The notes under the pieces are model-generated. The model was not told where the DNA came from, did not search any database, and saw only the letters and a list, made by a program, of their open reading frames with translations. A stretch of 58,174 nucleotides of DNA from a virus (lineage: Duplodnaviria; Caudoviricetes). The translations under genes and the position numbers were made by a program. How positions within the stretch are numbered: position 1 is the stretch's first letter; the number at the start of each line of letters is the position of its first letter. Below, piece by piece: positions 13,344 through 46,129 of this stretch. The stretch lies in IMG/VR virus record IMGVR_UViG_3300018914_000034, positions 1 to 58,174 of that record. One strand, 5' to 3'.

Positions 13344-13847
13344 GGATGGGCTCCACTAGGCGAAGCGCGACCGCCTCCTCGTACCAGCCGAGGAGTTCGA
13401 GCCAATCGTAGGATCTGAGATCGCGGAGGTTCTGATTCAGTCCGCTTGCGACTGCGGCGACGTATCGGCGCCAGAGAGCAGGGTTAGCCCGAGCACCCGT
13501 CGCAAGCGTCGGGGCAAAAAACTTTGCGCGACCTCGTAAAGGCGCGCGTCGTCGTCGTCGATCATGACGCCCGACCCGAACAGGCCGGGCGGCACCGGAT
13601 CGCCGCCGGGCAGGGTCGTCATGGCCTCGCAGAGGTTCACCTCGGCCCCGCTCTTCAGGGCCTCCAGGATGACCTCGACCTGCGCCACCGTCAGGCGCCG
13701 AACCTCGAAGGCAGTGATCGTGACCCCGCCATAAGTGAAGGGGAACTCGAGTTCGACGCGTTGGGAGAGCGGCCGGCCCTCGACCTGCAGAAACTCAGCC
13801 TTCAGGGGCTCAGCCGGAGCCGGTATTTCCTCGCGATGTTCTATCAT
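13336..13847 (-). CDS. Tail assembly chaperone, extended -1 frameshift product (gpE+E'-like)
   Basis: Slippery TTTTTTG at 13515-13521; the -1 frame reads APTLATG...YDWLELLGWYEEAVALR..HG* to TAA 13336-13338. Confidence 0.75.
13437..13847 (-). CDS. Tail assembly chaperone (gpE-like)
   Basis: VELEFPF..G..I....VRRLTV, DDDD..L..V..SFL motif; precedes the tape measure. Confidence 0.85.
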   Translation of the reverse strand: MIEHREEIPAPAEPLKAEFLQVEGRPLSQRVELEFPFTYGGVTITAFEVRRLTVAQVEVILEALKSGAEVNLCEAMTTLPGGDPVPPGLFGSGVMIDDDDARLYEVAQSFLPRRLRRVLGLTLLSGADTSPQSQAD

Positions 13848-13894
13848 GATATGAAGCCTTCCTGGACGTTTTCGGCCCGGATGGGGAGAATGGA

Positions 13895-14308
13895 ATGGAT
13901 GGATGGATCAGGCTGCTGGAATCCTTGACCCGGCTCGTAGAAACGGCGCCTTGGCTCGCCTTCGTGTTTTTCTGTCTCCCTGGAATCCTGGCGCTCTTCA
14001 TGCGAAGCGCCGCCGGAACACTGGCCGGAAGCGGCCTCGGTCTTGTGGCTGGAGTACTCGTCGGCACGACAAGTAGCGGCTGGCCTCTCTTCATTTGGCT
14101 CTTCGCCTGTCTCGTCGGCCTTTTCTTCGGCGTGTGGAAGCGCAGAGAGAGCCAAGCCGAGCGCCGGCACCAGGAACTTATGTCGGCTATCCGCATCGGC
14201 CGTACGACACCGTCTACGCCGGTCGAGCCACCTTCCGGTCCTACCCAAGCGCCTCAGTTCGGTGGCCATCAGGGCACGATGAAGCCTGGGGCGGAGTTTG
14301 CCCGATAA
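13895..14308 (+). CDS. Antisense moron membrane protein (3 TM, Pro-rich tail)
   Basis: GGGGAG RBS; three hydrophobic segments followed by KRRE; opposite to the tail operon. Confidence 0.75.
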   Translation: MDGWIRLLESLTRLVETAPWLAFVFFCLPGILALFMRSAAGTLAGSGLGLVAGVLVGTTSSGWPLFIWLFACLVGLFFGVWKRRESQAERRHQELMSAIRIGRTTPSTPVEPPSGPTQAPQFGGHQGTMKPGAEFAR

Positions 14309-14355
14309 CTTGAGTGGCTGCCGCCAGGGTTTAGACCCTCCTGGCGGCTTGCTCA

Positions 14356-14886
14356 TCAGTAGCGCAGAATCCTGCGTTCGTCGGCGTTCTGGTCGACGCC
14401 GTCGACCCGCCAAGTGCCGTTCTCCCAATCGTAGTAGTACTTCTCGGCGCCATCGAAATAGACCGCGTAGCGCAGGATCTCCTTGATCGTGTGATCATGA
14501 CCGATCAGGTTGTCGCCGCGCGAGAACTCGTCACTCTCGATCCGGGCCAGCCGCCCCCACATGATCGCCTTGACCTCGATGGCCTTGTTGGTGATGTCCT
14601 TGTTCCGGACGAGACCGTAGCAGGTGTACGGGATGCGCCCGCGCTGGCCGAGGCCGAACTGGCTCAGGGTTTGCGGATCCCAGCCGGTCTGCTTGAAGGT
14701 GGCCTCGAGCGCGGCGAGGCCGAGACCGCCGACCTCAATCGCACCGAGCGCGCCGCCGGCATGGTGGCTGGAGGTGATCTCCTCAAGGGTCGGCAGCTTG
14801 ATCGAGGCGAGGTTGTTGCGCTTGTTGGCGTTCGGCGCGTCGTCGCCGACATAGAGGTTGACGGCCTCCTGGATAAGCAAAGGCAT
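14356..14886 (-). CDS. Major tail tube protein (P2 FII-like)
   Basis: IKLPTL....HHAGG..G.IEV, LEATFK, YY.DW.N...RVDGVDQ. Confidence 0.92.
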   Translation of the reverse strand: MPLLIQEAVNLYVGDDAPNANKRNNLASIKLPTLEEITSSHHAGGALGAIEVGGLGLAALEATFKQTGWDPQTLSQFGLGQRGRIPYTCYGLVRNKDITNKAIEVKAIMWGRLARIESDEFSRGDNLIGHDHTIKEILRYAVYFDGAEKYYYDWENGTWRVDGVDQNADERRILRY

Positions 14887-14965
14887 GGTCCGGTTCCTTC
14901 AAAAAGAATGACGGGAAGACGAAAAACGGCGCGCGGATCACGGCGCACCGCCTTAGGCCACTCGA

Positions 14966-16819
14966 TCAGGCCGCAAACCCGAGCAGTTGGTCGGTGCTGG
15001 TGACCAGGTCCTCGAGCAGGACGTTCAGGGACTCGCGATTGCGCCGGCTGTCGACCGTGACGTGCTTGAGGGTCGGCGGCTCCTCGACAGCGTAGAACGT
15101 CCGGATGCGACCAAGTCGCAGGTTCTCCGGATTGTTCTTGTCCTCCTCGAAGCCGACCCGCCACCCGGGCAGGATTGCGCCCTTGGCCTGAAGGTCGGAC
15201 AAGAAGGCGATATGGTCGTTGAGGACGGCCTGGATCCCGTGCCGTGTGATGTTGGTCCGCCCCAGACGACGGCGCGTCGCCCGCAGCAGGGCCAAGTGCT
15301 CATAATCGCGCAAGCGGGAGACATTGATCATCCTCCACTTCGGATCCTCAGCGCAGGTGTCGGTGCAGATCAAGACGAACCCGGAATCGGAGATCGCCGT
15401 CTCAAGCCCGAGCTCGCCGCGCTGGGTGATGCCGATTTGGTGGCTGAGGAGGATCTGTCCGTCCGTCGCGCCATCGGTTAGCGAGAAAGCATCGTACCTC
15501 TTCAGGCCGATGATGCCTTGCACCGGACGATTCGCAGGTGCGTACATCGGAATCCCACCGGCCTCGAAGTCGGCAGCGATCTGCTGGCCGATGGCCACCA
15601 CTGCCCCGTCCTCCTCCACATCGGAGGTGCCAACCCGCACAATGTCCCAGTTGTCGAGGGCGATCAGGTTCTCGCTGTTGATCGTCTCGCGCCAGTCGAG
15701 CGCATCGCGCACCGTAGTTCCGGGACCGCCGACATAGGCTTTCGCGAGAAGCGCGTTGGTGATCTGAGACAGGATAGCGCAGACCGGGTTGGCCTGTGCC
15801 AGGCCGCCGGTCATGCCGACCGTCACGTCGAAGCCATCCCCCACCGCGAAATCCGTCGAGCCGTCGGCGATCGTGAAACGGATATGGGATCCACCATAGG
15901 GTACGCCCACGGTGGCATCAGCAAGCGCGACACCGTCCGGGTCTGTCACGGAGAACACGCCGGCATTGGACGGGACCGCATGAGCAACCGTGATCTGGAA
16001 TTGGTCTCCCACGGCGAAGTCCACCGAGCCGTCGGCAATCGAAAACACCACCGGTCCGTTGTAACCCTGACCGACAGTGACGACGCCGATGGTCTGGCCG
16101 CCCGGGTTCTCGATCACGAAGGTGCCGCCGTTGGCCGCCGCTGCGAAACACGTGGCGGTGTAGATGCCCGGAACGGCGCCCACGCCGGCTGCAACGCCAC
16201 TGATAGCGCCGTTGCCCACGTTCCCGGCCTTGGGCTGGGCCGTCGCCGAGAAGGTGCCGCCAGTGCAGCGCACCCGATAGACGCCACGTTTGACGCTCGC
16301 GCCATAAGCCGGCGCCGAGGCCAAGGTCAGAGTGCCGTTGCCGGAGTTGCCGCCAGTTTTCACCGCGCTGTTGACGGTCGTAGCGCCGGCCGTGCGCGTG
16401 AACTTGCCCGTGAAACCAGGCGATCCCAGGAGGCGGGGGATCACCCCAAGACGCTGCCCTGCCTGCAGCATGGCATGCCACCCGGTGCCCGCAGCCGGAT
16501 CGCCGACGATGTTGGCGATGGTCTCGTCGATGGTAGCCCCCTGCGGGACGCGCACCACCACGAGCCGTGCCGCGATCTGGAGGCGGGCAAGCTGAGCGTT
16601 GAGTTTTACGACCGCCCGGTAAAGAGGCCCGGACCCGAGCTTACCTAGGTAGTTTAGGTCGTTCGAGTTGAAAGTGACCGCCACATGGTAGGGAAACGCG
16701 GATGGGTCTGCATCGGCGGATGGCAGCACGAAGCCTGCAACGGAGAGATCGCTGGCGACGACCGAGCTCGGCTCGCTGTCATCGCGAAGGAAAGTCATGC
16801 CGAAGGTGGATTCGGTCAT
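14966..16819 (-). CDS. Contractile tail sheath (P2 FI-like) with large inserted domains
   Basis: AAGGAG RBS; GVIPRLLGSPGFT, PANRPV.GI, T...DP.W..INV.R..D, NNPENLRLG motifs. Confidence 0.92.
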   Translation of the reverse strand: MTESTFGMTFLRDDSEPSSVVASDLSVAGFVLPSADADPSAFPYHVAVTFNSNDLNYLGKLGSGPLYRAVVKLNAQLARLQIAARLVVVRVPQGATIDETIANIVGDPAAGTGWHAMLQAGQRLGVIPRLLGSPGFTGKFTRTAGATTVNSAVKTGGNSGNGTLTLASAPAYGASVKRGVYRVRCTGGTFSATAQPKAGNVGNGAISGVAAGVGAVPGIYTATCFAAAANGGTFVIENPGGQTIGVVTVGQGYNGPVVFSIADGSVDFAVGDQFQITVAHAVPSNAGVFSVTDPDGVALADATVGVPYGGSHIRFTIADGSTDFAVGDGFDVTVGMTGGLAQANPVCAILSQITNALLAKAYVGGPGTTVRDALDWRETINSENLIALDNWDIVRVGTSDVEEDGAVVAIGQQIAADFEAGGIPMYAPANRPVQGIIGLKRYDAFSLTDGATDGQILLSHQIGITQRGELGLETAISDSGFVLICTDTCAEDPKWRMINVSRLRDYEHLALLRATRRRLGRTNITRHGIQAVLNDHIAFLSDLQAKGAILPGWRVGFEEDKNNPENLRLGRIRTFYAVEEPPTLKHVTVDSRRNRESLNVLLEDLVTSTDQLLGFAA

Positions 16820-16834
16820 CGGTTGCTCCTTGTG

Positions 16835-16862
16835 AAAGAAAAGGCTGCCTTCACAGGCAGCC
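16835..16862 (-). terminator. Terminator-like hairpin just upstream of the sheath gene
   Basis: GGCTGCCT-TCAC-AGGCAGCC followed by TTTTCTTT on the minus strand. Confidence 0.6.
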
Positions 16863-16904
16863 GGGTGAACGCGACGGCAATCCGTGCGGGATGGGAACGT
16901 GTGA

Positions 16905-18173
16905 TTAAGAAAATTCGACTGCGACCCGTCCCGCGCCGAACGTCCCGTTCGGGAACGCTGCCCCGGTGCCATCCCGAGAGACCGTCAGGAGTTGGATCGC
17001 CATGATCCGGAGAGCGTTCAAGGACCCTCTTGTGATGAACCCGCCTTGTGTGGAGATCCGATAGCCGGTCCCGTCAGTGTACGACAAAACGCGAGCGTGA
17101 AAACCGAACGCCGTCATGTCTGCCAGATTGGATCCTCTATCGAGGGATATCTCTGCATCGAACATTACAGGAGGAATCAGAGAGGGGTGAGCGATCGCCG
17201 GTTGCCCGAGGAGCCACGCCGAATTTGAGTTGCTCTCTGTGACGACGCTCGTCGTGCTTCCTTGCACGTTCATCGTGTGCATCCCGCTTCCGTAGCTGCC
17301 GGCAGATGTGAGAAACCCCGATCCGTTTCCACTTACGCGGATTGCGGCGTAGCTGTTGTGCGGGAGATACGAATAACCATGAACGCGGCAAACCTTAGCC
17401 CAGGAAGGAACAGCGATCTCAAGCGTCTGCTTTCCCGAAAGGTCTAGCCTCTTTTGGTGAGCGTTCTCGAAATGGAATGGCGCCCAAGGTGTCCAGGCTG
17501 TATTCCGCAGGAAACGGACATAAGAGGGGAAGAGTGCCCGATCCTGGTCGAACCTCGTGTAATCATGGGCGATCTGGATCGCCTGGTCCGCCCCTGTATC
17601 GTCGACGATACACTCGATAAGCCAGGGATTGCCCGAAGCCGGAGTGTTCGGCGCCGTGCTTGAGAAAAGCCGCCGGCCGTTCTCAAGAAACAGGTTCGGA
17701 GACGTGTTGACCGGCGCCGGCGTCAGCTTGCCGCGCGGTCCCGTCGCATTGGAGAGGTCCGCGAGAGCCTTTCCGCCGACGACAGTCGTAAGCGCGCCCA
17801 GGTCGGTTCGGAGGGTCCCGATCTCGGCGCGCTGTGCCGGCGTGACGAAAACCCTCGACGCCGTCTCGTTGACTTGCGTCGCCGGGAGGGTGCTCGCGAG
17901 GATCGAATCAACGATCGCCTGCGCGGCCGCCATATCCTCCTCCAGTTGGTCGAGCGCGGCTTGGGTTTCCGCGATCTTCGGCGCGAGCTCGGCGTCGATC
18001 CGCGCAAGGCCGAATTGCCGGAGCTCGTCGATCACGCCCTGGACCTCGACCCGTTTCGCCTCGAGCGCTCTCAAGCGGGAGGCGACCGAGCCAAGAACGG
18101 CGTCCCATGTAGCCGGATTGAGCCGCGTCGAGGGGTCCGACTTATAGTCGTTATCAGCGGAGGGAATCGCCAT
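16905..18173 (-). CDS. Second tail fibre/receptor-binding protein
   Basis: Coiled-coil N-terminus, FVTPAQRAEI and KALADLSN fibre motifs, lower-GC beta-rich C-terminal half. Confidence 0.75.
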   Translation of the reverse strand: MAIPSADNDYKSDPSTRLNPATWDAVLGSVASRLRALEAKRVEVQGVIDELRQFGLARIDAELAPKIAETQAALDQLEEDMAAAQAIVDSILASTLPATQVNETASRVFVTPAQRAEIGTLRTDLGALTTVVGGKALADLSNATGPRGKLTPAPVNTSPNLFLENGRRLFSSTAPNTPASGNPWLIECIVDDTGADQAIQIAHDYTRFDQDRALFPSYVRFLRNTAWTPWAPFHFENAHQKRLDLSGKQTLEIAVPSWAKVCRVHGYSYLPHNSYAAIRVSGNGSGFLTSAGSYGSGMHTMNVQGSTTSVVTESNSNSAWLLGQPAIAHPSLIPPVMFDAEISLDRGSNLADMTAFGFHARVLSYTDGTGYRISTQGGFITRGSLNALRIMAIQLLTVSRDGTGAAFPNGTFGAGRVAVEFS

Positions 18174-18357: not shown

Positions 18358-18370
18358 TGCCGGATCTCCC

Positions 18371-35258: not shown

Positions 35259-37061
35259 CTAGAAGGTGTGTGAGGAAGGCCTGAACTCCGGCCGAATGCG
35301 CACGCCATGGTAGACCGAAACCGACGACTTGCCCTTTTCGAAGCCGTGCCGTGCCGCCGCCTTCGGCAGCCGTCGATTGAAGGTGTTGGCCTGCCAGGGT
35401 GTGAGCGCGGCGCGTTTGCAGTATTCGTTGAAGGCCATGTACAGGTCGCCCGCCGATTCAGTATCTCCGGATATCTTCGTCACATCAAGCGCTGCCCGGA
35501 TGAACGCTCCCAGGAGATCGCTTTCATCCCGATATTCCTGCGTCGCCGCCAGCACCTCGTCTGGCGGATCGAGCCGCCCCCGCGCGAAATAGTCGAGAGC
35601 GCCAGCGATCAGCCAATTGAGAATGCCGGAGCGTTCCGCCCACAGCTTCTCCGGCAGGCTCTTGTCGCGCTCGGAGATGGGGATCTGCTCGTCGAAGGGT
35701 ACCAGTGACACGCGCCGCCAGATGCCGTCGTCGTCGCCCTTGATCGGCGGCTTGCGGTTCATGGAGATCACCAGCTTGAAGGTCGGATAGACCTCCACGA
35801 ATTCCTCGTTGAGGCGCCGCACCAGGATAGGCTCGCCGGATGTGAGCTGCTTGATCAGGCTCTCGTCGAACGACACGCCTTCCTTCGGCTCGGCGGAGCG
35901 CACGAGGCGCGCGCCTGGCAGGCGCACGAGGTCCGGCGTCGCCTCGGCCCCCTTGCGCCTGTCCTCACCCACCAGCGTCGCGATCGGCACCGAGGTGGCG
36001 TAATCGCCCAGGATCTTCGACACGATGTCCACCAGCGTCGACTTGCCGTTCGCCCCCTCGCCATGGAACAGCATGAAGACCTGCTCCTTGGTGAGAGCTG
36101 TGAGCGCGTAGCCGAAGAACCGCTGCACGTAGTCGCGCACCGCCTGGGACGGCAGGATCCGCACCAGGAACCTGTCGAAAACCGGACAGCCCGCAGCCGG
36201 ATCGTATGCCACCGGCCCTATCTTCGAGATCAGATCGTTGCGATCATGGTCGCTCAGCGCCACACGCCAGGTCGTGATCATTCGGACGGAATCCGGGTCA
36301 GGGTTTTCCGGGTCGGGCTCCTCGACCTGGATGAAGCGCAGCGTGCCGTTCTCCACGTTGAAGGCGAGCGGGTCGGCGTCGAAATCCCGCACGGGCTTCG
36401 ACAGGAAGGCCACCGCTTCGTTGAGCATGCCGTCGATCTTGCCCGAGTTGCCGGAGGTATTGGCAAAACGCCGGCGCGCCGTCTGGCGGGCCTGCAGGCC
36501 CTTCAGCACGCTCTTTCCGTCGGCGATCGCCTGCTTGAGCGGCTCGATCTTGGCTTTCACCCCTTTGATCCTTGCCTCCCGCTCGCCCTTGATCAAGTTG
36601 ATGTCGTTCTCGAGGTCGGAGATCTCCGCGTGGAGTTCCGCCAAGCGCTCGCGGGCGGCTTCCGCCGCCTCGATCACCTGCCGCTCCCGCGGCGTCGGCT
36701 CCAGAACATAGGCTTCGAGGGCGATGGCCTCCACGACCTTGTGGCACATCGGGCGGGTGCCGCAGCCGTCGATATCCTCCTGCCAGCGGCGGCCGTCGTA
36801 GACGTGCCAGCCGATGTTCTGCACATGCACGATGTCGTCGCCGTACCGGATGCGCAGCCGGCGGCTGTTGCCGATGTCGTTCTGAGGCTCGGCAGCGCAA
36901 AGGCGCACCAAGCTCCAATCGATATCCTCCGTGATCGCGACCTCGTCCACGAACTCGTCATCCGGGTCGGGTGCCATCCTGGGGGAAGCCGGGGGCGCCG
37001 AGTTCACGGCCGGGGCGTTCTCGACAATGGAGGCGATGCGTTTGGTGGGATCTTCAGTCAC
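35259..37061 (-). CDS. P4-family/D5 SF3 primase-associated helicase
   Basis: NDIGNSRR D5-N, FNVENGTL, GEGANGKST Walker A, IKQLTSGE, N.KP.I...DDGIWRR; GGGAGGG RBS with GTG. Confidence 0.95.
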   Translation of the reverse strand: MTEDPTKRIASIVENAPAVNSAPPASPRMAPDPDDEFVDEVAITEDIDWSLVRLCAAEPQNDIGNSRRLRIRYGDDIVHVQNIGWHVYDGRRWQEDIDGCGTRPMCHKVVEAIALEAYVLEPTPRERQVIEAAEAARERLAELHAEISDLENDINLIKGEREARIKGVKAKIEPLKQAIADGKSVLKGLQARQTARRRFANTSGNSGKIDGMLNEAVAFLSKPVRDFDADPLAFNVENGTLRFIQVEEPDPENPDPDSVRMITTWRVALSDHDRNDLISKIGPVAYDPAAGCPVFDRFLVRILPSQAVRDYVQRFFGYALTALTKEQVFMLFHGEGANGKSTLVDIVSKILGDYATSVPIATLVGEDRRKGAEATPDLVRLPGARLVRSAEPKEGVSFDESLIKQLTSGEPILVRRLNEEFVEVYPTFKLVISMNRKPPIKGDDDGIWRRVSLVPFDEQIPISERDKSLPEKLWAERSGILNWLIAGALDYFARGRLDPPDEVLAATQEYRDESDLLGAFIRAALDVTKISGDTESAGDLYMAFNEYCKRAALTPWQANTFNRRLPKAAARHGFEKGKSSVSVYHGVRIRPEFRPSSHTF

Positions 37062-37077
37062 GCGCCCTCCCTATAAA

Positions 37078-37138
37078 TACACACGCCATACACAAAAGAC
37101 ACTTGACGCCCTGTAACGCCGTGTGTACAACATACACA
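37078..37138 (+). promoter_or_regulatory. hicAB promoter with operator palindrome
   Basis: TTGACG(37103)-17-TACAAC(37126); TGTGTA-CAACA-TACACA inverted repeat 37122-37138; extra TACACA half-sites at 37078 and 37089. Confidence 0.75.
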
Positions 37139-37156
37139 TAGACAGGGGGCAGAGAG

Positions 37157-37336
37157 ATGGACTCGAAGGACTTGATCAAGGAGCTGGAGCAGGACGGTTG
37201 GTTCTGGCACTCGACGACGGGCAGCCACCGCCACTTCAAGCACCCCACCAAGCCCGGCAAGGTCACGGTGCCCCACCCGAAAAAGGACATGCACCCCAAG
37301 ACGGTGAAATCGATCAGGAAGGCGGCGGGGATCTAA
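37157..37336 (+). CDS. hicA: HicA toxin (mRNA interferase), absent from the ORF track (59 aa)
   Basis: MDSKDLIKELEQDGW....GSHRHFKHPTKPGKVTVPHPKKD...TVKSIRKAAGI. Confidence 0.95.
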   Translation: MDSKDLIKELEQDGWFWHSTTGSHRHFKHPTKPGKVTVPHPKKDMHPKTVKSIRKAAGI

Positions 37337-37363
37337 CCCTGCCCCAACCGAAAGGAGAGAACC

Positions 37364-37777
37364 ATGAGACCCTATGTTGCGCTGATCCACCTTCCCGAAA
37401 ACGGCTCGTCCTGGGGCGTCACCTTCCCCGACGTCCCTGGCTGTGTGTCCGCCGGTGACAGCTTCGAGGAAGCGGTCGAGAACGCCCGCGAAGCCCTCTC
37501 CGGTCACCTCGCCGCGCTCCAGGCCGATGGTGATCCGATCCCTGAGGCACGGACCTACAAGCAGGTTCGTGACGACGAGGACGTCCAAGCCGAGGTGCGG
37601 GAGGGCGCGACTCTGCACCTGGTCGAGCCCCGCGTGATCGCTGCCGAGCGCGTCAGGGTGAACATCACCATCGACAAGGGACTTCTGCGCCGAGCCGATG
37701 AAACTGCTGAGGCTAAAGGCATAACCCGATCGGCATTCATCGAGCAGGCGCTCGATCGTCTGATTGAGGTGTCCTAA
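37364..37777 (+). CDS. hicB: HicB antitoxin with C-terminal ribbon-helix-helix
   Basis: WGVTFPDVPGC.SAGDS.EEA..NA.EAL; RVNITIDKGLL..TRSAFI; AAGGAG RBS. Confidence 0.95.
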   Translation: MRPYVALIHLPENGSSWGVTFPDVPGCVSAGDSFEEAVENAREALSGHLAALQADGDPIPEARTYKQVRDDEDVQAEVREGATLHLVEPRVIAAERVRVNITIDKGLLRRADETAEAKGITRSAFIEQALDRLIEVS

Positions 37778-37780
37778 CTC

Positions 37781-38605
37781 ATGAAGGGCGCGAAACATCC
37801 CAAGCGGAGAGATGGCAATTTGGCTCCTCTGATAGGTGGCATCCTCGTCAGCGTACTGGTGGCAAGCTATGCCCTGTTGATGATGTGGGGTGCAGAGGTG
37901 TGCGGCGGTGCAAAGGTGAAGGAAGCCCTGCTCGCCGATGGTCGGATGGGCTGTGTAGAATACTGGTTCAATCGGTATCAGACCATCCTCACCGGATTTG
38001 CAGCCTTGCTCGCTGCCTGGATGGCGTCTCTGCCGGTCAGAGGACAACTCAAGGAGATGTCTCGGCAGTCTGCCGCCTCTGCGAGACCCGCTATGATTGA
38101 ACTCGCAAAAGCCCTGGAGGAGGAAAGAGAGTACATAGCGGAGGCCATGTTCGACCTGATCGGTGTTAACCGCTTGCAGAGAGAGTATGATGATCGAGCA
38201 TCCTGGCCGGAAATCTACTCCGAGTGGTCCGATCGTTGCTGGAACCTTGTTGGCAGGTGTCGGGACGTCGATGAATTTCTGTCGGCAATTTCCCGAAGGA
38301 ACCCCGAAGCGACAGCACTGAACAGCACCCGAGCAGAGTTGGTGAAATCGATAGGGGCTTTGAGGAACGCACTTCGCGACCTTGGCGAGGCCTTTCAGCT
38401 GCAGACTACCGGACCAGATTATGAAGTGGGCGAGGAAGATATCTCCAAAGCAGAGAGTGATCGGCGACGCCGGACCGTGGAGATCGCATACAAGGCGTGG
38501 ATGGATCAAAGCCGTGGGATGCTCAGACTCCTTTCGACCGAAATTACGGAGGCCTGGACTCGCGTTCGTCAGATGGAGCGATACGCATTGGACCTGGCAC
38601 GCTGA
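37781..38605 (+). CDS. Membrane-anchored helical hypothetical protein co-oriented with hicAB
   Basis: Two N-terminal TM segments (C.EYWFNRYQT.L.GFAALLAA), lower GC, 3 bp after hicB. Confidence 0.8.
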   Translation: MKGAKHPKRRDGNLAPLIGGILVSVLVASYALLMMWGAEVCGGAKVKEALLADGRMGCVEYWFNRYQTILTGFAALLAAWMASLPVRGQLKEMSRQSAASARPAMIELAKALEEEREYIAEAMFDLIGVNRLQREYDDRASWPEIYSEWSDRCWNLVGRCRDVDEFLSAISRRNPEATALNSTRAELVKSIGALRNALRDLGEAFQLQTTGPDYEVGEEDISKAESDRRRRTVEIAYKAWMDQSRGMLRLLSTEITEAWTRVRQMERYALDLAR

Positions 38606-38628
38606 GGCGGCATCGTGAATGCCATTGC

Positions 38629-38928
38629 TCAAGGCCGCACCTCCCGCGCCGCGATCTGCCGGATGAACTCCTCGTGCGGCGCGAGCGCCCGCAGCAGATT
38701 GCTGTAGTCGAGGAAGTTTGCGCATTGACGCTGCACCTCGGCGATCGTGGCGACGCCGACGCTGGTGGGATCGCGCAGGGTGAAGAGGTGGAGCGCGTCC
38801 AGGCTGGAGGCCTCCCGCTTGGCGGCGAGCAGCAGCTCCTCCGCCATCTCGCGAAAGCTCAAGCCGCGCGGGATCTCTGGCACGGCCTCTTGGGCGACGT
38901 CAGGCCTGAGTGCGACGACGATCGTCAT
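38629..38928 (-). CDS. Hypothetical protein (99 aa)
   Basis: ATGA overlap with the primase stop, GAGGGG RBS. Confidence 0.75.
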   Translation of the reverse strand: MTIVVALRPDVAQEAVPEIPRGLSFREMAEELLLAAKREASSLDALHLFTLRDPTSVGVATIAEVQRQCANFLDYSNLLRALAPHEEFIRQIAAREVRP

Positions 38929-40160
38929 GCGGCTTGCCCCCTCAGCATGGTGTTGAAGTCGGTTCCCTGGTCGGCCCAGGCCTCGCGGATGATCCGGCCG
39001 GGCCGCGCGTGGCGGAGCGCAGCCCGGCGCAGGGCGTTCTGGGTGAAGACCGGTTCGCTGTCGCCGTCGCCGAGCAGGAAGAGCTCTTCCACGCTGTCTG
39101 GCACCGGCATGATGTCGGATGAAAAGTCGGGTTCGGCCGATGGAATCATCACCGGAAACGACCGGCCGCGAGCATCGGTGCGGCGCAGGGTCGGATGGCG
39201 CATGGAGTTCATGGCCTTGCCGCCGAGATTGAGCAGGTTGATCGAGGACCAGAAGGCCGCCCCGTCCAGCAGTGGCGAACCCAGCAGGCGCAGGGCCGTC
39301 CAGACCGAGAGCACCGTCTCGATCCCCTCCCCGACGAAGAGCCGCCTCGGCTCCTTGACGCGCACGAGTTCGATCCGGCCGCCGCGCTGTGTGCCGCGCA
39401 CCTTCTTGGCCGGCACGAACTCGCCGGTCTCGCGGTCCGGCACCATAGTCTTGCCCGACTCGGTGGAGAGATCGATCCAGGTAGCGTGCAGGCCCGAGAA
39501 ACGCCCATCCGGCCCGATGATGGCGGCGAGCATGGCCGGCCCCACATGGATCGGCTTCACGCCCTTGCCGACGCTGTCGAAGAGGGGATGGCGGGGAGCA
39601 AAGCGCAACAGGGCTCCGTCCGGGCGCTGCAGCTTGCGGTGCGTGAGGTAAGCCTCGGCGGCCGTGCCCCAAATCGGCTTGGCATCCTTCCAGAACCCGT
39701 AGCAGCGCTCCCGCTCCCGCTCGCGATAGGCGTTGAGCTCCTTGGCGCGGGCCTCCTCCTCGCGGGCGTTCCTCTCGCGCCAGGCGCGAGCTTCTTCCTC
39801 CCGCCGGGCACGGTCCTCGTCCGATTCCCGCGCCACCTTGCCGGGCGGCGGGCGGCGGGTCAGGATCTCGCATGCGGTGAGGAAGTCGCAGGCCTCCAGG
39901 ATCATGCACAGGTCGATCACGTTGCCGCCGCTGCGGCCGCTGGCGTCGCTGCACTTGCGACAGTTGAATAGGTTTTTGTTGAGGTTGACGGAGAAGCGGT
40001 CGGCATTCGGCTTCTCGGTCCCGCCGCAGCGCGGGCAGGCGCCGACCTTCTCATAGGACCCCTTGAGCCGCGGCATGCGCGGATGCGTCAGCAGCGACGC
40101 GATCTGCACCGCTCGCGCTTCCTCCATCCACCGCTGGAACTCCGGGTCAGGCGCGCGCAT
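38925..40160 (-). CDS. Primase: Zn-finger + Toprim-like
   Basis: GACPRCGG..DRF..FNCRKC Zn ribbon, AEAYL..R, GEGIET.LS, LLGDGD, GTDFN. Confidence 0.88.
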   Translation of the reverse strand: MRAPDPEFQRWMEEARAVQIASLLTHPRMPRLKGSYEKVGACPRCGGTEKPNADRFSVNLNKNLFNCRKCSDASGRSGGNVIDLCMILEACDFLTACEILTRRPPPGKVARESDEDRARREEEARAWRERNAREEEARAKELNAYRERERERCYGFWKDAKPIWGTAAEAYLTHRKLQRPDGALLRFAPRHPLFDSVGKGVKPIHVGPAMLAAIIGPDGRFSGLHATWIDLSTESGKTMVPDRETGEFVPAKKVRGTQRGGRIELVRVKEPRRLFVGEGIETVLSVWTALRLLGSPLLDGAAFWSSINLLNLGGKAMNSMRHPTLRRTDARGRSFPVMIPSAEPDFSSDIMPVPDSVEELFLLGDGDSEPVFTQNALRRAALRHARPGRIIREAWADQGTDFNTMLRGQAA

Positions 40161-40582
40161 CAATCGGTTCCCTTCACCGTGACACGGATCCAGCACCGCT
40201 GCTCCGGGCAGGTGCAGCGCACGCGCTGACGGATGCGATCCTCCTCGCTGTGAGCCGGTCCGACGGGAACGGTGCGGGTCGGGCCGCAGCCATAGGCGCA
40301 GTCGTGCGGGCCGGCGCGGCGCGAGGCGGTTTCGATCATGGTTTCCGGCACGCGCATCTCGAGGGCGACGTCAGAAACGCTCTCGCCCTTGCTGAGGCGC
40401 TCGACGGCGGCCTTCGCGCCCTCGGCCGTGAGGCGGAAGCGCCGCCGCTTCGGCCGGGTGTCCTTGACAGGCTTGCCGCTGGCGTCCTTCGGTCGAGGAC
40501 CCACCGGCGTCATGCGCGTCTTGATGTAGTCCGGGATGCCTCCCGGTCCCCAATCGACGTCGTTCCAGGACCAGACCGCCAT
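40160..40582 (-). CDS. Hypothetical HTH-containing protein
   Basis: RLSKGESVSDVALEMRVPETMI HTH-like segment; Cys-containing C-terminus; TGATG overlap with the primase. Confidence 0.6.
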   Translation of the reverse strand: MAVWSWNDVDWGPGGIPDYIKTRMTPVGPRPKDASGKPVKDTRPKRRRFRLTAEGAKAAVERLSKGESVSDVALEMRVPETMIETASRRAGPHDCAYGCGPTRTVPVGPAHSEEDRIRQRVRCTCPEQRCWIRVTVKGTD

Positions 40583-40585
40583 GGC

Positions 40586-40909: not shown

Positions 40910-41401
40910 TCAGGGTCGCTGCACGAGCCTCGGCCCTGCGCCGGCCTTCGCCGTCGCGCAGGCCTGTCCGAGCCCGTTCAGCGAGTTGAGAACTTCCGTG
41001 CGTGCGCGATCGATGGTCTCGATCTCGGCCGGCGAGAACTTCCCGTCGGCCGCCGCAGTGGCGAATTGCGTGACCAGCTTCGCGACGTCGCTGAGCACCT
41101 GGCTGTGGCTCGCGACGAGGCACCCGGCCTGGTCCGGCGCAGCCGCGCCGTCGGTAAGCTTGCATCCGTTGATCTCGGCCATCACGCCCGTGATCAGCGG
41201 CTGGCCGCAATCGGCTTCGAGCGCCAGGGCCTGGGGGATCGTGATGATGGTCGGATCGGTCGAGAGCTGGCAGCGCGACATCTGGCTGGAGGACAACCCT
41301 GCTGTCCCCCCTGCGCGGTCGACGCCGCCGCACAGTTTGACGAGATCACGGGTGGCGCTTTTCAGGCGGTGGAACCAGGCGTCGTCGATGGGGCGGCTCA
41401 T
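40910..41401 (-). CDS. CII-like regulatory protein
   Basis: LK.ATR.LV...GG...A, ALE..CG.P.IT..MA, A.ADG..SP.E; GGAG RBS; downstream of cro. Confidence 0.75.
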   Translation of the reverse strand: MSRPIDDAWFHRLKSATRDLVKLCGGVDRAGGTAGLSSSQMSRCQLSTDPTIITIPQALALEADCGQPLITGVMAEINGCKLTDGAAAPDQAGCLVASHSQVLSDVAKLVTQFATAAADGKFSPAEIETIDRARTEVLNSLNGLGQACATAKAGAGPRLVQRP

Positions 41402-41826
41402 GGCACGAAGTCTCCGTCAACGGGAAAAAGCGTCTGCTTTTCCCGGAGTGGGAATGGTCAAGCTTTGAGAGAAAGGTGCGGTCGAACTAACGCGTCACGG
41501 AGGATCACCCCCATGAAGAACTTTGAGACCGGCAGGGGCCGGCTCGACCGGCCTCAGACCGTCGATGACAGCGGCCGGGACCGTGCTCCACGGGATCTCC
41601 GCATAGCAGAGGCCCGGGCACGTCTCAGGGGCGCACTGCGGACCCTTGCGATTGCGCAGCGCCTCGCCGAGGAAGCCCACACCCACCGTCGCGACCTGTG
41701 CCACGAAGCCAAGAGACAGGACTGCGGTCAGCTCTCGCAGCTGACTGAATCCGAACGCTGGCAGGATAGCGTGGAGAGACAGAAAACCCCGGCGGGACAT
41801 GGCGATGGTGGAGGTGCCAAGAGTGC

Positions 41827-42069
41827 TCATGACCGCTCCATTTCAGGAGAGGAGTGCGGCAAGGAACAATCAGCACTGATGACCTGGTCTAGAAAGTCAT
41901 TTGGAGTGACCTGACCGTGTGTGACTTCCTGAATACGGGCCAGCTGCAACGGACGCGGGATCCGCTTGCCACTTGCATACCGACTAACCGCCGCCTGCGT
42001 CGTTCCTATGAGCGACGCGAAGTCGGAGTGGGTCATCTGGTTCGCAGCCAAGTAGTCCGTGAGCTTCAT
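41827..42069 (-). CDS. Cro-like HTH repressor
   Basis: MKLTDYL....T...FA..IG.TQ..VSRY..G.R.P...T.G.VTPNDF; divergent from cI. Confidence 0.9.
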   Translation of the reverse strand: MKLTDYLAANQMTHSDFASLIGTTQAAVSRYASGKRIPRPLQLARIQEVTHGQVTPNDFLDQVISADCSLPHSSPEMERS

Positions 42070-42164
42070 ACCCCATCAATACCAAAACGGTATCATGGTG
42101 GCAAGCCTCAAAATACCATTTTGGATTTAGACGCTGTGGAAACGCCCATGTACCATTTTGGTAT
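42070..42164. promoter_or_regulatory. OR region: three operators with PR- and PRM-like promoters
   Basis: ATACC-N5-GGTAT-type palindromes at 42079-42093, 42113-42127, 42150-42164; TTGCCA-17-TATTGA (minus) and TAGACG-17-TACCAT (plus). Confidence 0.85.
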
Positions 42165-42873
42165 GAGTTTTCTGAAAGAGATCCGGGAAAAGAAAGGTCT
42201 CTCGCAGGCAAAGCTCGCGCAACTCGCCGGCACCAGCCAGCCCCAAATTAAGCGGCTAGAGGACGGCGAGCGCAAGCTGACCCGCGAGTGGGCCGAACGC
42301 CTTGCGCCCCATCTAGAAGTCGCGCCAGAACGAATCCTCTTCCCCAACGGAATGCCAGTTGGTGCACCGCCTCACATAGAAGATCGCGTCCGGGAGCAGC
42401 CTTCGCCCAATGTTGACTTGTCACGGATCGAGGACGCCCCTCCCCTCCGGAGGTTCGCTGGCCCACGAGACGTGCCCGTCCTTGGCACAGCTGTCGGCGG
42501 CGGCGATGAGGATGGCGATTTCCGCTTCAATGGCGAGACCATCGACATGGCGCCCCGGCCGCCCGGGATTGCCAACCGCAAAGACGTCTATGCCCTCTAT
42601 GTCGAGAACGACTCGATGTACCCCCGCTTCAGGCCAGGCGTGAAGCTGTATGTCGATCCGCACCGCAGGCCGCTTGCTGGCGATGACGTGGTGCTGGAGC
42701 TCCATGGCGCTGAGGGCGAAGCCGGCAAAGGCTTCATCAAGTGCCTCGTCAAACGGACGGCCACTAAGGTGATTGTTGAGCAGTTCAACCCGCCCAAGCA
42801 GATCGAGTTCGACGCCAACCAAGTGAAGAACTTGCACCGGGTCATCCCCTACGACGAGTTGCTGGGGTTTTAG
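42163..42873 (+). CDS. CI-like repressor (XRE HTH + S24 peptidase)
   Basis: LKEIREKKGLSQ..LA..AGTSQ.QI.RLE.G; VPVLG, NDSMYP (Ser), FIKCL (Lys). Confidence 0.94.
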   Translation: MSFLKEIREKKGLSQAKLAQLAGTSQPQIKRLEDGERKLTREWAERLAPHLEVAPERILFPNGMPVGAPPHIEDRVREQPSPNVDLSRIEDAPPLRRFAGPRDVPVLGTAVGGGDEDGDFRFNGETIDMAPRPPGIANRKDVYALYVENDSMYPRFRPGVKLYVDPHRRPLAGDDVVLELHGAEGEAGKGFIKCLVKRTATKVIVEQFNPPKQIEFDANQVKNLHRVIPYDELLGF

Positions 42874-42932
42874 CCTTCCGGCCCCGACGGGACCAGAAGT
42901 CAATGGTAGAAGCCAGAAGGGAGTGTCTCAGG

Positions 42933-43055
42933 ATGAGCGAAAGAGAGAAAGATCCGCCGAAGCCTCCGCGCGAGAAGCCGCCGCCCCCGTCACAGGATGG
43001 ACTTGTTGGCACGCGGAGCGAAGTCCCTAAGGATAGAGATACCAAGTCCAAGTAG
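42933..43055 (+). CDS. Putative 40-aa Pro/Lys-rich peptide
   Basis: AAGGGAG RBS; MSEREKDPPKPPREKPPPPSQDGLVGTRSEVPKDRDTKSK*. Confidence 0.5.
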   Translation: MSEREKDPPKPPREKPPPPSQDGLVGTRSEVPKDRDTKSK

Positions 43056-43563
43056 CCCAACCGATCAGGGCAAGGGGCGCCAACGCCCCTGCCCCCATGC
43101 CGAGCCGCAGTGCGAGCACTTTGCGCGCATTGCTCAGGTGGCTTGCGTCGATGCGGCCCTGCTGAGATTGGGTGAGGTAGGCGAACATATCCGCTAGATC
43201 ATCATCGCTGCCGTCGATACGTCCCCGGACCAGCCACATTGAGGGAAGGCTGCCCGTATAGCCGTACTGCATGGGCCAGTTGGCCCAGATGAAGCATACC
43301 ATGCCAACGACCAGGCAGGATCCCGCAACGGCAAACGGCCACGGGGAGAGACCCGCGGGCGCCTCCTTCATGATCGCTGCCGCGAGGCCGAATAAGGCGA
43401 GCGCGATGGTCACGTAGGCGCTGAACAGGCTTGTAGCCTTTTGCTCAACGGACCTTTTGACCTCCAGGACATCCAAAAGATACTTCTCGGTTTGGGCGTG
43501 GGCCTCCTTGGCAATATTGAGATTGACGCTCGCAAGGCCATGAATTTCATCAGGCGTCAGCAT
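43027..43563 (-). CDS. 3-TM membrane protein (immunity-region cargo)
   Basis: GAGGT RBS before ATG 43563; EQKATSL..2TM..N.RK..L..TM architecture. Confidence 0.75.
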   Translation of the reverse strand: MLTPDEIHGLASVNLNIAKEAHAQTEKYLLDVLEVKRSVEQKATSLFSAYVTIALALFGLAAAIMKEAPAGLSPWPFAVAGSCLVVGMVCFIWANWPMQYGYTGSLPSMWLVRGRIDGSDDDLADMFAYLTQSQQGRIDASHLSNARKVLALRLGMGAGALAPLALIGWATWTWYLYP

Positions 43564-43631
43564 TTGTACCTCGCATGTCGGCAGGACCCCACGATGCTCC
43601 TGGTGCGCGGCGAAGGAGAGTTCCGGACAGG

Positions 43632-43934
43632 CTATGCCTCCGGCCCGATCGCGAGATATCCCACCTCGCCGTGAACAACGTATTGCGGCTGCCATCCTTC
43701 CATCTCTAGAGCCCGAGACGCGATCTCCTCGGGCTTTTTTTTACCTTCCTTCATGGCATCGCGGATCCGCAAGGCATAGACGGCATCTTCGACAAACGTC
43801 ATCTTGCGGCCGCTCATCTGGTAGGCCGTGTTGATGATGATCATCGCCATCTGCTCTGGTTCCATTTTGATAAAGGTGGGCGCCCAGTCCTCATCGGATC
43901 CGAGTTCAGATCCTCTCTGATGCTCCTGGTTCAT
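43632..43934 (-). CDS. Hypothetical protein (100 aa)
   Basis: ATGA overlap with the Zn-ribbon gene stop; GGAG RBS. Confidence 0.75.
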   Translation of the reverse strand: MNQEHQRGSELGSDEDWAPTFIKMEPEQMAMIIINTAYQMSGRKMTFVEDAVYALRIRDAMKEGKKKPEEIASRALEMEGWQPQYVVHGEVGYLAIGPEA

Positions 43935-44179
43935 GAAAGCTTCTCCGGTTTCTGATTGTAAAGGTGGGGTATTATTTTGATGTTCCGGCTCGCGGCGTCG
44001 CGCTCATCGCAGCCGCGGCAGTAGAGCCGGCTCCCGAGCTCGTGGAAGCTGCGGTAGCCTCGCGCCTCCAGGTCAAGGATTTTCCGGCGCTGGAATCGGC
44101 GGACCCGGCCGCAATTCTCGCAGGTGATGTCGAGCGCCCAGGCTCGTCTCAATTCACTGTCTCTATGCCTTGCTTCCAT
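43931..44179 (-). CDS. Small Zn-ribbon protein (CxxC...CxxC)
   Basis: ITCENCGR...LGSRLYCRGC. Confidence 0.8.
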   Translation of the reverse strand: MEARHRDSELRRAWALDITCENCGRVRRFQRRKILDLEARGYRSFHELGSRLYCRGCDERDAASRNIKIIPHLYNQKPEKLS

Positions 44180-44194
44180 GATAGCCCCATGAAT

Positions 44195-44209
44195 GTTCTT
44201 ATTTCGTTC
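44195..44209. promoter_or_regulatory. Alphaproteobacterial LexA (SOS) box
   Basis: GTTC-TTATTTC-GTTC is an exact GTTC-N7-GTTC, 15 bp upstream of the Zn-ribbon start codon. Confidence 0.8.
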
Positions 44210-44287
44210 ATGGTGCGTTAGGCATATATGGCTGTCGAGTCAGATTCCGCTTTTCCACAGCAGTTAACAATAATGCTGTCATAAGCA

Positions 44288-44341
44288 ATACCATCCACAT
44301 TCCATATTGGTATTGACGTACATATACCAAATCGGTATTGA
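44288..44341 (+). promoter_or_regulatory. PL/OL-like promoter with repressor operators
   Basis: TTGACG(44313)-17-TATTGA(44336); operators ATTCCATATTGGTAT 44299-44313 and ATACCAAATCGGTAT 44324-44338 match OR. Confidence 0.88.
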
Positions 44342-44371
44342 TGGGTCATCTTTCACGAGGCGATACCGCCA

Positions 44372-44752
44372 ATGACCCACACCCCTTCGAAACACTTGAG
44401 CCGTTTTCATTCAGTATCGGAGAACCGCGCTCTCACCCACGACGGCTACATCTGGCCGGTTCCCCGGGCAGAGATGCAACAGGCTCCGGCCATCGTCGAG
44501 CGCATGGCCGAAGACTTAGACCAAGTGGTCAAGTCTCATACCCGGATCTCGCTCTCGGGCCTCGGTTGGACGGCAGACCAGTTGATCCGCCACCGAGCCG
44601 CGGCCGTCGCCCGCTACAAGAAGGGCCAGGCTGCCACGGGCAGCTTCTCCACGAACGTGCGCAGCTTCGCCGCCGACGCCGCCGAGCTCGCCTGCCTCGC
44701 CGCCTTCGTCGGAATGGTGGGCGTGTGGGCGATCATCCTGGGGGGCCTTTGA
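44372..44752 (+). CDS. First early-operon gene, C-terminal TM
   Basis: GAGG RBS after PL; hydrophobic C-terminus. Confidence 0.7.
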   Translation: MTHTPSKHLSRFHSVSENRALTHDGYIWPVPRAEMQQAPAIVERMAEDLDQVVKSHTRISLSGLGWTADQLIRHRAAAVARYKKGQAATGSFSTNVRSFAADAAELACLAAFVGMVGVWAIILGGL

Positions 44753-45024
44753 TGTTCCACACCTTCACGCCCCGCTCCGGCTACGACGGCTACAGCCGGC
44801 ACAATCTCGCCACCGGCCCCTTTGCCGAAGCCAGCCTCCGGGCCTGGTCCGTGCTGCAGTTCGCCCGCGAGTTCCACCACAGCGGTGACCCGGCCGGCAT
44901 GGCGGAGATCCTCACCGTCATCAAGTCGAGCGTCGGCCAGTGGCCGGCCGAGGTCCAGCGCTTCCTCTTCCGCGGCCTCGCGGCGATCGGCGAATCCGCC
45001 GCACCAGCCAATGAGGTGGCGTGA
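44752..45024 (+). CDS. Hypothetical protein (90 aa)
   Basis: TGATG overlap with the previous gene; MFHTFTPR...NEVA*. Confidence 0.7.
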   Translation: MFHTFTPRSGYDGYSRHNLATGPFAEASLRAWSVLQFAREFHHSGDPAGMAEILTVIKSSVGQWPAEVQRFLFRGLAAIGESAAPANEVA

Positions 45025-45066
45025 TGCGGCAACCGTCTCATGCGCCCCACGGAGCCGATGACGCGA

Positions 45067-45357
45067 CTAGTGGCCCGAACCTTCGGTCTTTGCCCGGCGC
45101 AAGGCTTCTGTTTCCAGCGTCTCCAGGAGCGTTTCGGCGATCCCTCGCACGGTCTCTTGCGCGGCTCGCATCGCGTCTTGATCCGACAGCGGGTCGCCGG
45201 CCATTGCCTCCATCTTCTCCTCGATGGGACGAAGATAGGCTGACAGGGTTGTGGGCGGGTGCCGAGACTCCACCGCAACCCGCCAAATCAGATGGGTCAG
45301 CATCGTCTCATACGCAAACAGGCGACCGTACAGCTCGCGCTTCTCTTCATCCGTCAT
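45067..45357 (-). CDS. Antisense acidic helical protein (96 aa)
   Basis: GGAG RBS; protein-like MTDEEKRELYGRLFAYETMLTHLI; opposite to the early operon. Confidence 0.7.
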   Translation of the reverse strand: MTDEEKRELYGRLFAYETMLTHLIWRVAVESRHPPTTLSAYLRPIEEKMEAMAGDPLSDQDAMRAAQETVRGIAETLLETLETEALRRAKTEGSGH

Positions 45358-45523
45358 CAGCTTGCTCCGAGGAATCGGGCCGCCGCCTTGCGGTTGACGA
45401 CGGTCGCGCACGTCTCGTCGTCGTGGTTGAGATCGGCTGGCACGCTTATGGTCCTCGCGGGTGGGAGATCGATCCTATCGCCACTGCCGAGATGCAGGCA
45501 AGGCAGAGGGTGGAGGGCCGCCC

Positions 45524-46129
45524 ATGACCTGGATGCCTTCCGTTTTCGGCAAGCCGATCGAGCTGCTCAAGCCCCGAGCAGACCAGGTCGATTTCAGCGC
45601 CATGGCGCATGCCCTCGCCAACGTGAACCGCTACGGCGGCCACGCGCAGACGCCGGTGTCCGTCGGCCTTCACGTGTTGATCGGGTGCGATATCGCGCCC
45701 GAGGCCTTGCGCCCCTGGTGGCTGCTCCATGACGGGCACGAAGAGCGCATGGGCGACACCGCCAGCCCCGTGAAGGAGACCTACAGCGCCCTCGCAACGG
45801 AGATGTACGGCCCTGAGGTGTCGAGCATGCTCACCCGGGTGCGGCTTGAGTTCGAGCGTCGCCACGACGCCGTCATCCACCAGGCGGCCGGGCTTCCCCT
45901 GCCGACGGACGAGCAGAAGCGGGAGATCCGGCGCATCGACCTGATCGCCCTCGCCACAGAGAAGCGCGACTTCCACGCCGAGCAGACCCGTCCCTGGTTC
46001 ACGGATCTTCACGGCATCCAGCCGGCGAAGCGGATCTACCGCTGGAAGCCGCCGGTGGTGGTCGCCGACGAGCTCTACCGCCGCTTTCGCAAGTACCTTC
46101 CCAGCCTTTCCACCCGCCACGTCGCCTAA
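45524..46129 (+). CDS. HD-superfamily phosphohydrolase (YfbR-like nucleotidase)
   Basis: AHALA..NRY.GH, SV..H, LLHDGHE..MGD..SPVK, D...L.TE.RD; GGAGG RBS. Confidence 0.88.
   Translation: MTWMPSVFGKPIELLKPRADQVDFSAMAHALANVNRYGGHAQTPVSVGLHVLIGCDIAPEALRPWWLLHDGHEERMGDTASPVKETYSALATEMYGPEVSSMLTRVRLEFERRHDAVIHQAAGLPLPTDEQKREIRRIDLIALATEKRDFHAEQTRPWFTDLHGIQPAKRIYRWKPPVVVADELYRRFRKYLPSLSTRHVA

Follow-up and report, generated by a model that had tools for sequence, protein, structure and literature searches.

The complete virus record IMGVR_UViG_3300018914_000034 (Caudoviricetes), all 58,174 bp of which were analysed and are referred to here as the window, has a G+C content of 64.6% and carries three places at which one or more genes lie backwards within an operon while an open reading frame (ORF) on the operon strand runs across them, from the stop codon of the upstream neighbour to the start codon of the downstream one. 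These bridge ORFs are best read, with a probability of roughly 0.55, as translation-only frames across foreign genes inserted backwards into a densely organised prophage operon. The comparisons set out below give good support to selection for a frame that is uninterrupted and coupled. We further infer that the bridges are translated, that this is of selective benefit and serves against polarity or in coupling, and that lytic transcription silences the cargo beneath them.

The three bridges, first pointed out in a first-pass annotation of the window, are present at the positions and with the stop/start overlaps given there, and each encloses real genes, or one such gene, on the opposite strand. 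Leftward structural genes occupy about 3.7-34.9 kb of the window and leftward replication genes 35.3-41.4 kb, and a rightward operon begins at 44.4 kb. At site 1, bridge 1 (13844..14356, minus strand, 170 aa) lies between the tail tube gene (14356..14886, minus strand; PF04985 Phage_tube, E 3e-21; G+C at third codon positions (GC3) 0.88) and a tail assembly chaperone gene (13437..13847, minus strand; PF10109, E 1.5e-4, below the gathering score), whose homologues adjoin tube and tape-measure genes in relatives according to tblastn. The ATG of the bridge shares its A with the tube stop (TGATG) and its terminal TGA lies within the ATGA of the chaperone start at 13847. Beneath it lies cargo 1 (13895..14308, plus strand), a gene for 137 aa with hydrophobic segments that is recognised by a codon model and by one homologue, and to which the bridge is codon-aligned in antisense.

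Site 2 belongs to a local chain of overlapping genes headed by a primase-like gene (38925..40196, minus strand; DUF7146, E 1e-18, with weak Toprim_3 and zinc-ribbon matches), which is joined through an ATGA overlap to a small gene of 99 aa (38629..38928, minus strand; codon-model score +16). The stop codon of this small gene, left unnamed in the first-pass annotation, is the one on which bridge 2 (37058..38632, minus strand, 524 aa) begins: its TTG overlaps the TGA (TTGA), with GGGAGGT 6 nt upstream, and its terminal TGA lies within the GTGA of the next start at 37061. That start belongs to a P4-type primase/helicase-like gene (35259..37061, minus strand; GTG start, GGGAGGG upstream), the counterparts of which in phage records are annotated as DNA primase or primase/helicase; homologues occur in 44 of 401 genomes, and starts of the NTGA form are common to its relatives. 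The bridge is codon-aligned in antisense to all three cargo genes, namely hicA (toxin; 37157..37336, plus strand; PF07927, E 1e-21, 77 bits), hicB (antitoxin; 37364..37777, plus strand; PF15919, E 2e-28, 99 bits, and RHH_1) and a membrane-type gene of 274 aa without assigned family (37781..38605, plus strand). The matches of hicA (PF07927) and hicB (PF15919) are above the gathering scores, and the two genes, adjacent on one strand and 27 nt apart, form a type II toxin-antitoxin (TA) pair of the hicAB kind.

At site 3, bridge 3 (45021..45527, plus strand, 168 aa) begins with GTGATG on the stop of a small gene of uncertain start (~44725..45024, plus strand; codon-model score +17), is preceded by GAGGT and ends in the ATGA of the gene at 45524..46129 (plus strand; codon-model score +48). 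The latter had been labelled an HD gene but gave no Pfam match at E<=0.001; Pfam likewise gave no match for the upstream neighbours 38629..38928 and ~44725..45024. Cargo 3 (45067 to 45357 or 45411, minus strand, the start lying at 45357 or 45411) encodes a small helical-looking protein, and bridge 3 is not codon-aligned with it: the frame offset to the cargo is 46 nt, compared with 51, 99, 306 and 723 nt, all multiples of three, for bridges 1 and 2.

All three bridges thereby overlap their neighbours in the manner of coupled cistrons, with the start on the upstream stop and the stop on the downstream start. Upstream of their starts, the frames of bridges 1 and 2 continue without a stop as far as 14428 and 38725, and the overlapping start codons of these two are therefore chosen ones. 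Tracts resembling a Shine-Dalgarno (SD) sequence stand 3-10 nt upstream of bridges 2 and 3 and of a bridge in a Microvirga flocculans prophage described below, and SD-like 5-mers precede three of the four bridge starts tested compared with 3.8% of 5118 internal NTG triplets; at bridge 1, no SD-like 4- or 5-mer was found at this distance. When antisense islands were defined automatically, the window held four, three of which are spanned, the fourth being the regulatory region at 41.4-42.9 kb. Promoter and terminator scans at the three bridge sites returned counts at the level of shuffled sequence.

A six-phase codon model trained on 37 confident genes backs the cargo strand everywhere, with 6.9 to 10 log units for cargo 1, 9.7 for hicA, 8.4 for hicB, 29 for the membrane-type gene and 27 for cargo 3. 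The same model assigns bridge 1 to the antisense phase by 3.8 and bridge 2 by 53 log units and places bridge 3 off frame. The GC3 of the bridges is 0.54-0.64 compared with 0.78-0.9 in the confident genes, and codon statistics of the coding type are absent from them. Only the last 34 codons of bridge 3 (45423..45527, from a GTG) appear weakly coding, with a log-likelihood ratio of 4.8; a very small genuine gene, coupled to the one downstream, is conceivable there. No match to the window bridges was found in Pfam or PHROG (no bridge served as a query against the large protein databases), and none in Pfam for seven spanning ORFs of relatives, the Microvirga bridge not being among those scanned. 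With their non-coding codon pattern and without family matches, the bridges are not ordinary genes, as had been proposed.

These data also bear on the view that the bridges encode functional proteins and are true antisense overlapping genes, which is very unlikely. For Pseudomonas aeruginosa there is a report of long antisense ORFs that are translated and subject to purifying selection (PMC8850804), and the start codons of bridges with SD-like tracts would suit such genes. Against this stand the lack of a Pfam or PHROG match for any of 11 scanned spanning ORFs and the antisense or off-frame composition, together with peptides that have an abundance of Cys, His and Arg and an unstructured appearance. 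The similarity between bridges does not exceed that imposed by the homologous cargo beneath them, and one and the same design extends over unrelated cargo.

The converse assignment, in which the operon-strand ORFs of sites 1 and 3 would be genuine genes and the cargo their shadows, is most improbable. Bridge and cargo at site 1 are nearly co-extensive and codon-aligned, with an ambiguous GC1/GC3 pattern, and one such mis-call (G412) did occur in the survey of relatives. The codon model nevertheless favours both cargo genes (by 7-10 log units for cargo 1 and by 27 for cargo 3), bridge 3 has its lowest G+C at the third codon position (0.71/0.65/0.54 for positions one to three), and relatives carry clear antisense genes at site 1. 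In addition, the one database homologue of cargo 1 (P0001), 54% identical over 100% of the query, differs from it by conservative changes in the hydrophobic N-terminal 100 residues, while the tail is variable. The DNA encoding P0001 was not found in scans of metagenome and viral contigs or in the 401 genomes of the family of G001, the genome that carries the Microvirga flocculans prophage. In the viral-contig scans, the membrane-type gene and cargo 3 had no relatives and cargo 1 gave a single 18-residue match; Pfam and PADLOC returned no match for the membrane-type gene or cargo 3, nor did PHROG for cargo 3.

Whether open frames of this kind could arise as chance shadow ORFs of high-GC DNA, with coincidental overlaps picked after the fact from one of many windows scanned, depends strongly on the reading frame. 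In the codon-aligned antisense frame, stops arise only from the sense codons TTA, CTA and TCA and are few, amounting in the window to 4.5 per 1000 codons where the remaining antisense frames have 26-33; this permissive frame is that of bridges 1 and 2. The probability of finding no stop in the bridge frame was obtained by resampling synonymous codons from reference genes of similar GC3. It is 0.11 for cargo 1, 0.01-0.09 for cargo 3, 0.32-0.35 for hicB and about 1 for hicA, and falls to 0.004-0.006 for the membrane-type gene. Of the 274 codons of the latter, 51 end in A, and TTA, CTA and TCA are entirely missing where about five (5.09) are expected. Site 2 does exceed chance, because three cargo genes share one frame, the spacers are open and both ends are overlapped.

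A null expectation for the whole arrangement was derived from independent high-GC records, in which same-strand genes inside operons were reverse-complemented in place, either as they are or in random register, that is, with 0-2 nt trimmed at each end. Single flipped genes (n=1043) were covered by an operon-strand frame in 46.7% of cases and doubly coupled in 5.7% as they are and 1.5% in random register. For two flipped genes (n=966) coverage dropped to 7.1% and double coupling to 0.52% and 0.26%, and for three (n=890) to 1.1% and to 0 and 0.04%, respectively. The as-is rate is inflated since a gene that is ATGA-coupled at both ends retains start, stop and register on flipping. As the flipped operon genes also have a higher GC3 than typical cargo, the control is generous to chance. 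The position of the downstream start was given a tolerance of -60 to +150 nt around the called one, both for the real islands and for the controls. Site 2, with three cargo genes, falls in the class with at most 0.04% double coupling, and single-gene cargo in the class with 1.5-5.7%.

Two surveys of relatives provided an independent comparison, for which a six-phase codon model trained on the data themselves served as gene caller. An island was counted where one to three genes on the opposite strand, with short spacers, were flanked on either side by two or more operon-strand genes. The first survey comprised 22 records with 26 islands, of which the four of the window and one strand mis-call were left out of the counts, and yielded double coupling in one of ten one-gene islands (G420, with a cargo of 176 aa and a codon score of 31), one of eight two-gene islands (the Microvirga flocculans prophage) and none of three three-gene islands. 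The second comprised 27 Rhizobiales genome neighbourhoods around helicase or tube homologues with a G+C content of at least 0.58 and yielded 21 islands, with one of the 14 one-gene and four of the seven two-gene islands doubly coupled. The bridges of the second survey span BrnT and BrnA in G389 (244 aa), HicB and HicA in G309 (L183; 246 aa, with an N6/N4 methylase gene upstream), HicA and HicB in G342 (L204; 255 aa), and an HTH_3 protein together with a pentapeptide-repeat protein in G095a (L202; 684 aa, with a gene for a HerA-like ATPase downstream). The one-gene case, G095b (also L202), has a bridge of 296 aa over a 275-aa membrane-type protein that is locally similar to the membrane-type gene of the window, with a primase gene downstream. 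Pfam confirms the cargo of the two-gene islands (BrnT/BrnA, HicA/HicB twice, and HTH_3 with pentapeptide repeats), and the two bridges in L202 (684 and 296 aa) and the one in L183 are borne out by a separate ORF listing.

Pooled over the independent islands, with the window excluded, 7 of 42 are doubly coupled, divided into 2 of 24 one-gene, 5 of 15 two-gene and 0 of 3 three-gene islands. Pfam verifies the cargo of the five two-gene cases as HicAB in three, BrnTA in one and an HTH protein with a pentapeptide protein in one. The one-gene figure does not differ from the null. The two-gene figure does: five of the 15 are covered and all five are doubly coupled, compared with 7.1% covered and 0.3-0.5% doubly coupled in the controls, and at a rate of 0.5% this outcome has a probability of about 1e-8, or about 4e-5 if the three hicAB cases are taken as one event. 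Among covered two-gene sets alone, the contrast is five of five in real islands with 5 of 69 in controls. The hicAB pairs in the four bridged cases are themselves diverged, with HicB 31-46% and HicA 35-55% identical. Codon resampling gave 7.25 expected stops for the pentapeptide gene (probability of none below 1 in 4000), 3.32 for the G420 cargo (0.030) and 3.35 for the G095b cargo (0.034); these genes were found because they are covered, and the figures describe rather than prove. Measured against flipped-gene controls, doubly coupled open frames over antisense cargo are strongly enriched in independent relatives.

In view of these numbers, the explanation by chance is unlikely. It is favoured by the permissive frame of bridges 1 and 2, by the 46.7% coverage and 1.5-5.7% double coupling of single flipped genes and by the relatives of site 1, which are not spanned. 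Against it are the three-gene controls, the membrane-type gene and the independent two-gene islands, and on the strength of the Microvirga replicate and the two surveys the proposition that all three bridges are chance shadow ORFs was dropped. The non-coding codon pattern of the bridges, their enrichment and the missing stop-generating codons in AT-richer cargo are together consistent with selection for translation itself, not for the peptide, which agrees with the earlier suggestion that the peptides may be irrelevant.

Further observations were made on the surveyed islands. Bridged islands are not clearly set apart from unbridged ones by the length of their spacers. A "half bridge" was seen in G402 (L061) at 2080..3114 (minus strand, 344 aa) over a 303-aa antisense gene at 2173..3084 (plus strand); an ATGA, preceded by GGAGG, couples it to the gene before, and a gap of 225 nt separates its end from the next called gene. 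The record G403, which has direct terminal repeats, contains two islands with interval lengths and stop counts identical to those of the Microvirga flocculans prophage (G001 contig 7, ~100-175 kb), which suggests that they are one element present twice, and it was counted once.

The relatives at the same sites show how the junctions are occupied elsewhere. At site 2, the primase and helicase genes are adjacent or fused in most relatives. In the Microvirga flocculans prophage, the interval between a gene that is methylase-like by eye and the helicase gene downstream of it is occupied by antisense hicA-like and hicB-like genes. The bridge there (255 aa) forms an ATGA on the methylase stop with AGGAG upstream, runs in the aligned frame over both genes and ends in the GTGA of the helicase start, and the enclosed HicB and HicA are 35% and 43% identical to those of the window. 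At site 3, a 61%-identical homologue of the product of 45524..46129 in L009 begins at the same residues, and what precedes it, joined through ATGA, is an ordinary gene rather than an island. At site 1, the tube and chaperone genes are adjacent in more distant relatives, and three unrelated inserts at this junction in three relatives (13848..14355 in the window and the inserts in L008 and L011) mark it as an insertion hot spot. In L008, whose tube protein is 83% identical, the insert (4532..4940) carries an unrelated antisense membrane-type gene of 113 aa, and in L011, the Microvirga flocculans prophage, a 2.2-kb insert (6464..8698) carries two antisense and two sense genes, among them those for a signal-peptide protein and a small ribbon-helix-helix-like protein. 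As side observations, L055 holds at 1248..4564 a same-strand insert of 4.2 kb between primase and helicase genes, with two proteins that are methyltransferase-like by eye, and the primase/helicase site accordingly takes cargo in either orientation. The membrane-type family of site 2 recurs as antisense cargo near primase/helicase genes (37781..38605 in the window and 2347..3174 in L202), its members share a conserved stretch around "EYW..RYQT.LTG", and it could be an uncharacterised exclusion or defence gene.

A number of findings weigh against reading the bridges as selected, translation-only frames. The codon-aligned antisense frame is fully open in 25 of the 58 window genes. Taken alone, site 1 is compatible with chance, given its no-stop probability of 0.11 and the 1.5-5.7% double coupling of flipped single genes, and site 3 is borderline and within the reach of chance. 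The expectation that unrelated antisense cargo at the tube/chaperone junction would also be spanned failed in both relatives with inserts, where the operon-strand frames contain 1 to 17 stops (one in the best frame of L008, 7-17 per frame in L011), and a bridge is not a rule at this site. Among 15 distinct high-GC hicAB cassettes in viral contigs, an open antisense frame exists only in the Microvirga-type one, and four unspanned cassettes that are antisense islands have 2-9 stops in every frame. In the surveys, 35 of the 42 independent islands lack double coupling, the cargo of G420 has no Pfam match, and the three extra hicAB cases may be non-independent events of shared ancestry. One candidate bridged island, G412, had to be rejected as a strand mis-call. 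Sampling was non-random, with regions picked for helicase, tube or HicB homologues, and the gene caller is home-made. The design may be specific to a lineage, since a P4-type primase/helicase or this tail module was the route by which all bridged cases were sampled. With respect to an anti-Rho role, the C-over-G skew of bridge RNA is only slightly above that of the flanks: the mean skew is -0.11 to +0.05, six of ten bridges are more C-rich than both flanks, and the best 100-nt windows reach 0.10-0.43.

A further point of this kind concerns the origin of the end motifs, as the upstream SD-like tract with its start and the downstream TGA within a start could be relics of a former direct overlap of the two neighbours. 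This leads to the explanation of the bridges as an insertion by-product, in which the cargo duplicates the overlapping stop/start junction on arrival and leaves an open frame without present function; it is fairly unlikely. A near-perfect 25-nt direct repeat with GGAGG and ATGATG flanks hicBA in G309 (L183, ~16360..16390 and 17097..17127), an imperfect repeat of ~24 nt flanks hicAB in G342 (L204), and in each of the two, 0 of 300 shuffles reach the score. Cargo-free helicase relatives start with NTGA, and one of them overlaps the primase stop. The flanking repeats and these starts indicate that at least some inserts did duplicate an overlapping junction. Duplication would supply the end motifs but neither the register, which has a chance of 1 in 3 per end, nor 250-680 codons free of stops. 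A significant flanking repeat is, moreover, absent in seven of the ten bridged cases, and stop-generating codons are missing from cargo of low GC3.

The preferred reading, that bridges are frames kept for translation alone, would involve the following sequence of events. Between the stop codon that ends the upstream gene and the start codon of the downstream one, the operon-strand frame would be maintained without stops. Ribosomes that end the upstream gene would re-initiate at the overlapping start, usually with the help of an SD-like tract, read across the antisense insert and terminate exactly at the downstream NTGA start, so that the downstream gene would stay translationally coupled. The operon RNA would remain covered by ribosomes and be shielded both from Rho and from pairing with the cargo mRNA, and the bridge peptide itself would probably be irrelevant. 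A wider proposal, held tentatively and at slightly less than even odds, is that the cassettes carried as antisense cargo in the replication and tail operons of prophages, among them TA pairs, membrane proteins and regulator-effector pairs, are "operon-compatible" units. Selection, acting either on the cassette lineage or after insertion, would keep an in-register, stop-free antisense frame in them, and the resulting ribosome relay would spare the operon Rho polarity and the loss of coupling.

The arrangement shares features with several known systems. Overlapping stop and start codons (ATGA, TGATG) couple translation in operons. The bridges have the same 4-nt and 1-nt overlaps and SD-like tracts, and their neighbours are joined likewise (the primase-like gene to the small gene through ATGA), but a bridge is a frame over opposite-strand genes rather than a gene, and selection on its peptide is not apparent. 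Classical morons have their own promoter and terminator and usually lie in operon orientation. The cargo resembles them as accessory genes (TA pairs, membrane proteins) between conserved phage genes, with three different cargoes at the tube/chaperone junction, whereas a spanning operon-strand frame is not known to be part of the classical description. Long antisense or shadow ORFs in high-GC genomes have been treated in a statistical model (PMC3454372). Bridges 1 and 2 are like such ORFs in their codon-aligned antisense frame, their antisense composition and their lack of a family, but shadow ORFs have no reason to begin on a neighbour's stop, to end in the next start or to cross several genes and spacers. 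Translated upstream ORFs that modulate Rho termination are reported for M. tuberculosis (bioRxiv 2022.06.01.494293) and for E. coli topAI (PMC12121999). They share with the bridges the proposed role, in which translation itself sustains transcription and downstream translation, but they are short sensors in 5' leaders, while the bridges are 170-684 codons long and lie inside operons over antisense genes. Antisense overlapping genes, as reported for P. aeruginosa (PMC8850804) and E. coli O157 (PMC9927249), are also long ORFs antisense to annotated genes and equipped with start signals; they are argued there to encode proteins under purifying selection, whereas all that the bridges have in common over their unrelated cargo is openness and coupling to the neighbours. 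Full-text searches of the literature found no description of operon-strand ORFs that span antisense inserts, and the bridges would combine known mechanisms in an architecture for which no description was found.

Some features of the surrounding genes were noted in passing. Just past the operon genes of site 3, a 371-aa protein encoded at 46143..47258 (plus strand) resembles, by eye only, a DNA polymerase sliding clamp (DnaN-like). In the sheath gene, the longest ORF (14966..16972, minus strand) has an N-terminal extension of ~50 residues that is absent from the homologues in L008 and L011, and the true start is probably near 16819. Among cultured-phage records, no near relative of the replication region was found, and a tube homologue is present in only three such records.

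If the bridges are what they are proposed to be, long ORFs would be maintained purely as ribosome tracks, and many "hypothetical proteins" called opposite the TA or defence genes of high-GC prophages would represent something other than proteins or noise. The opposite strand would impose selection on synonymous positions of the cargo, and a testable design rule would follow for placing genes backwards in operons without polarity. The bridges would also offer a system in which Rho polarity can be separated from coupling, a candidate for which is the hicAB cassette between the methylase and helicase genes of the Microvirga flocculans ATCC BAA-817 prophage.

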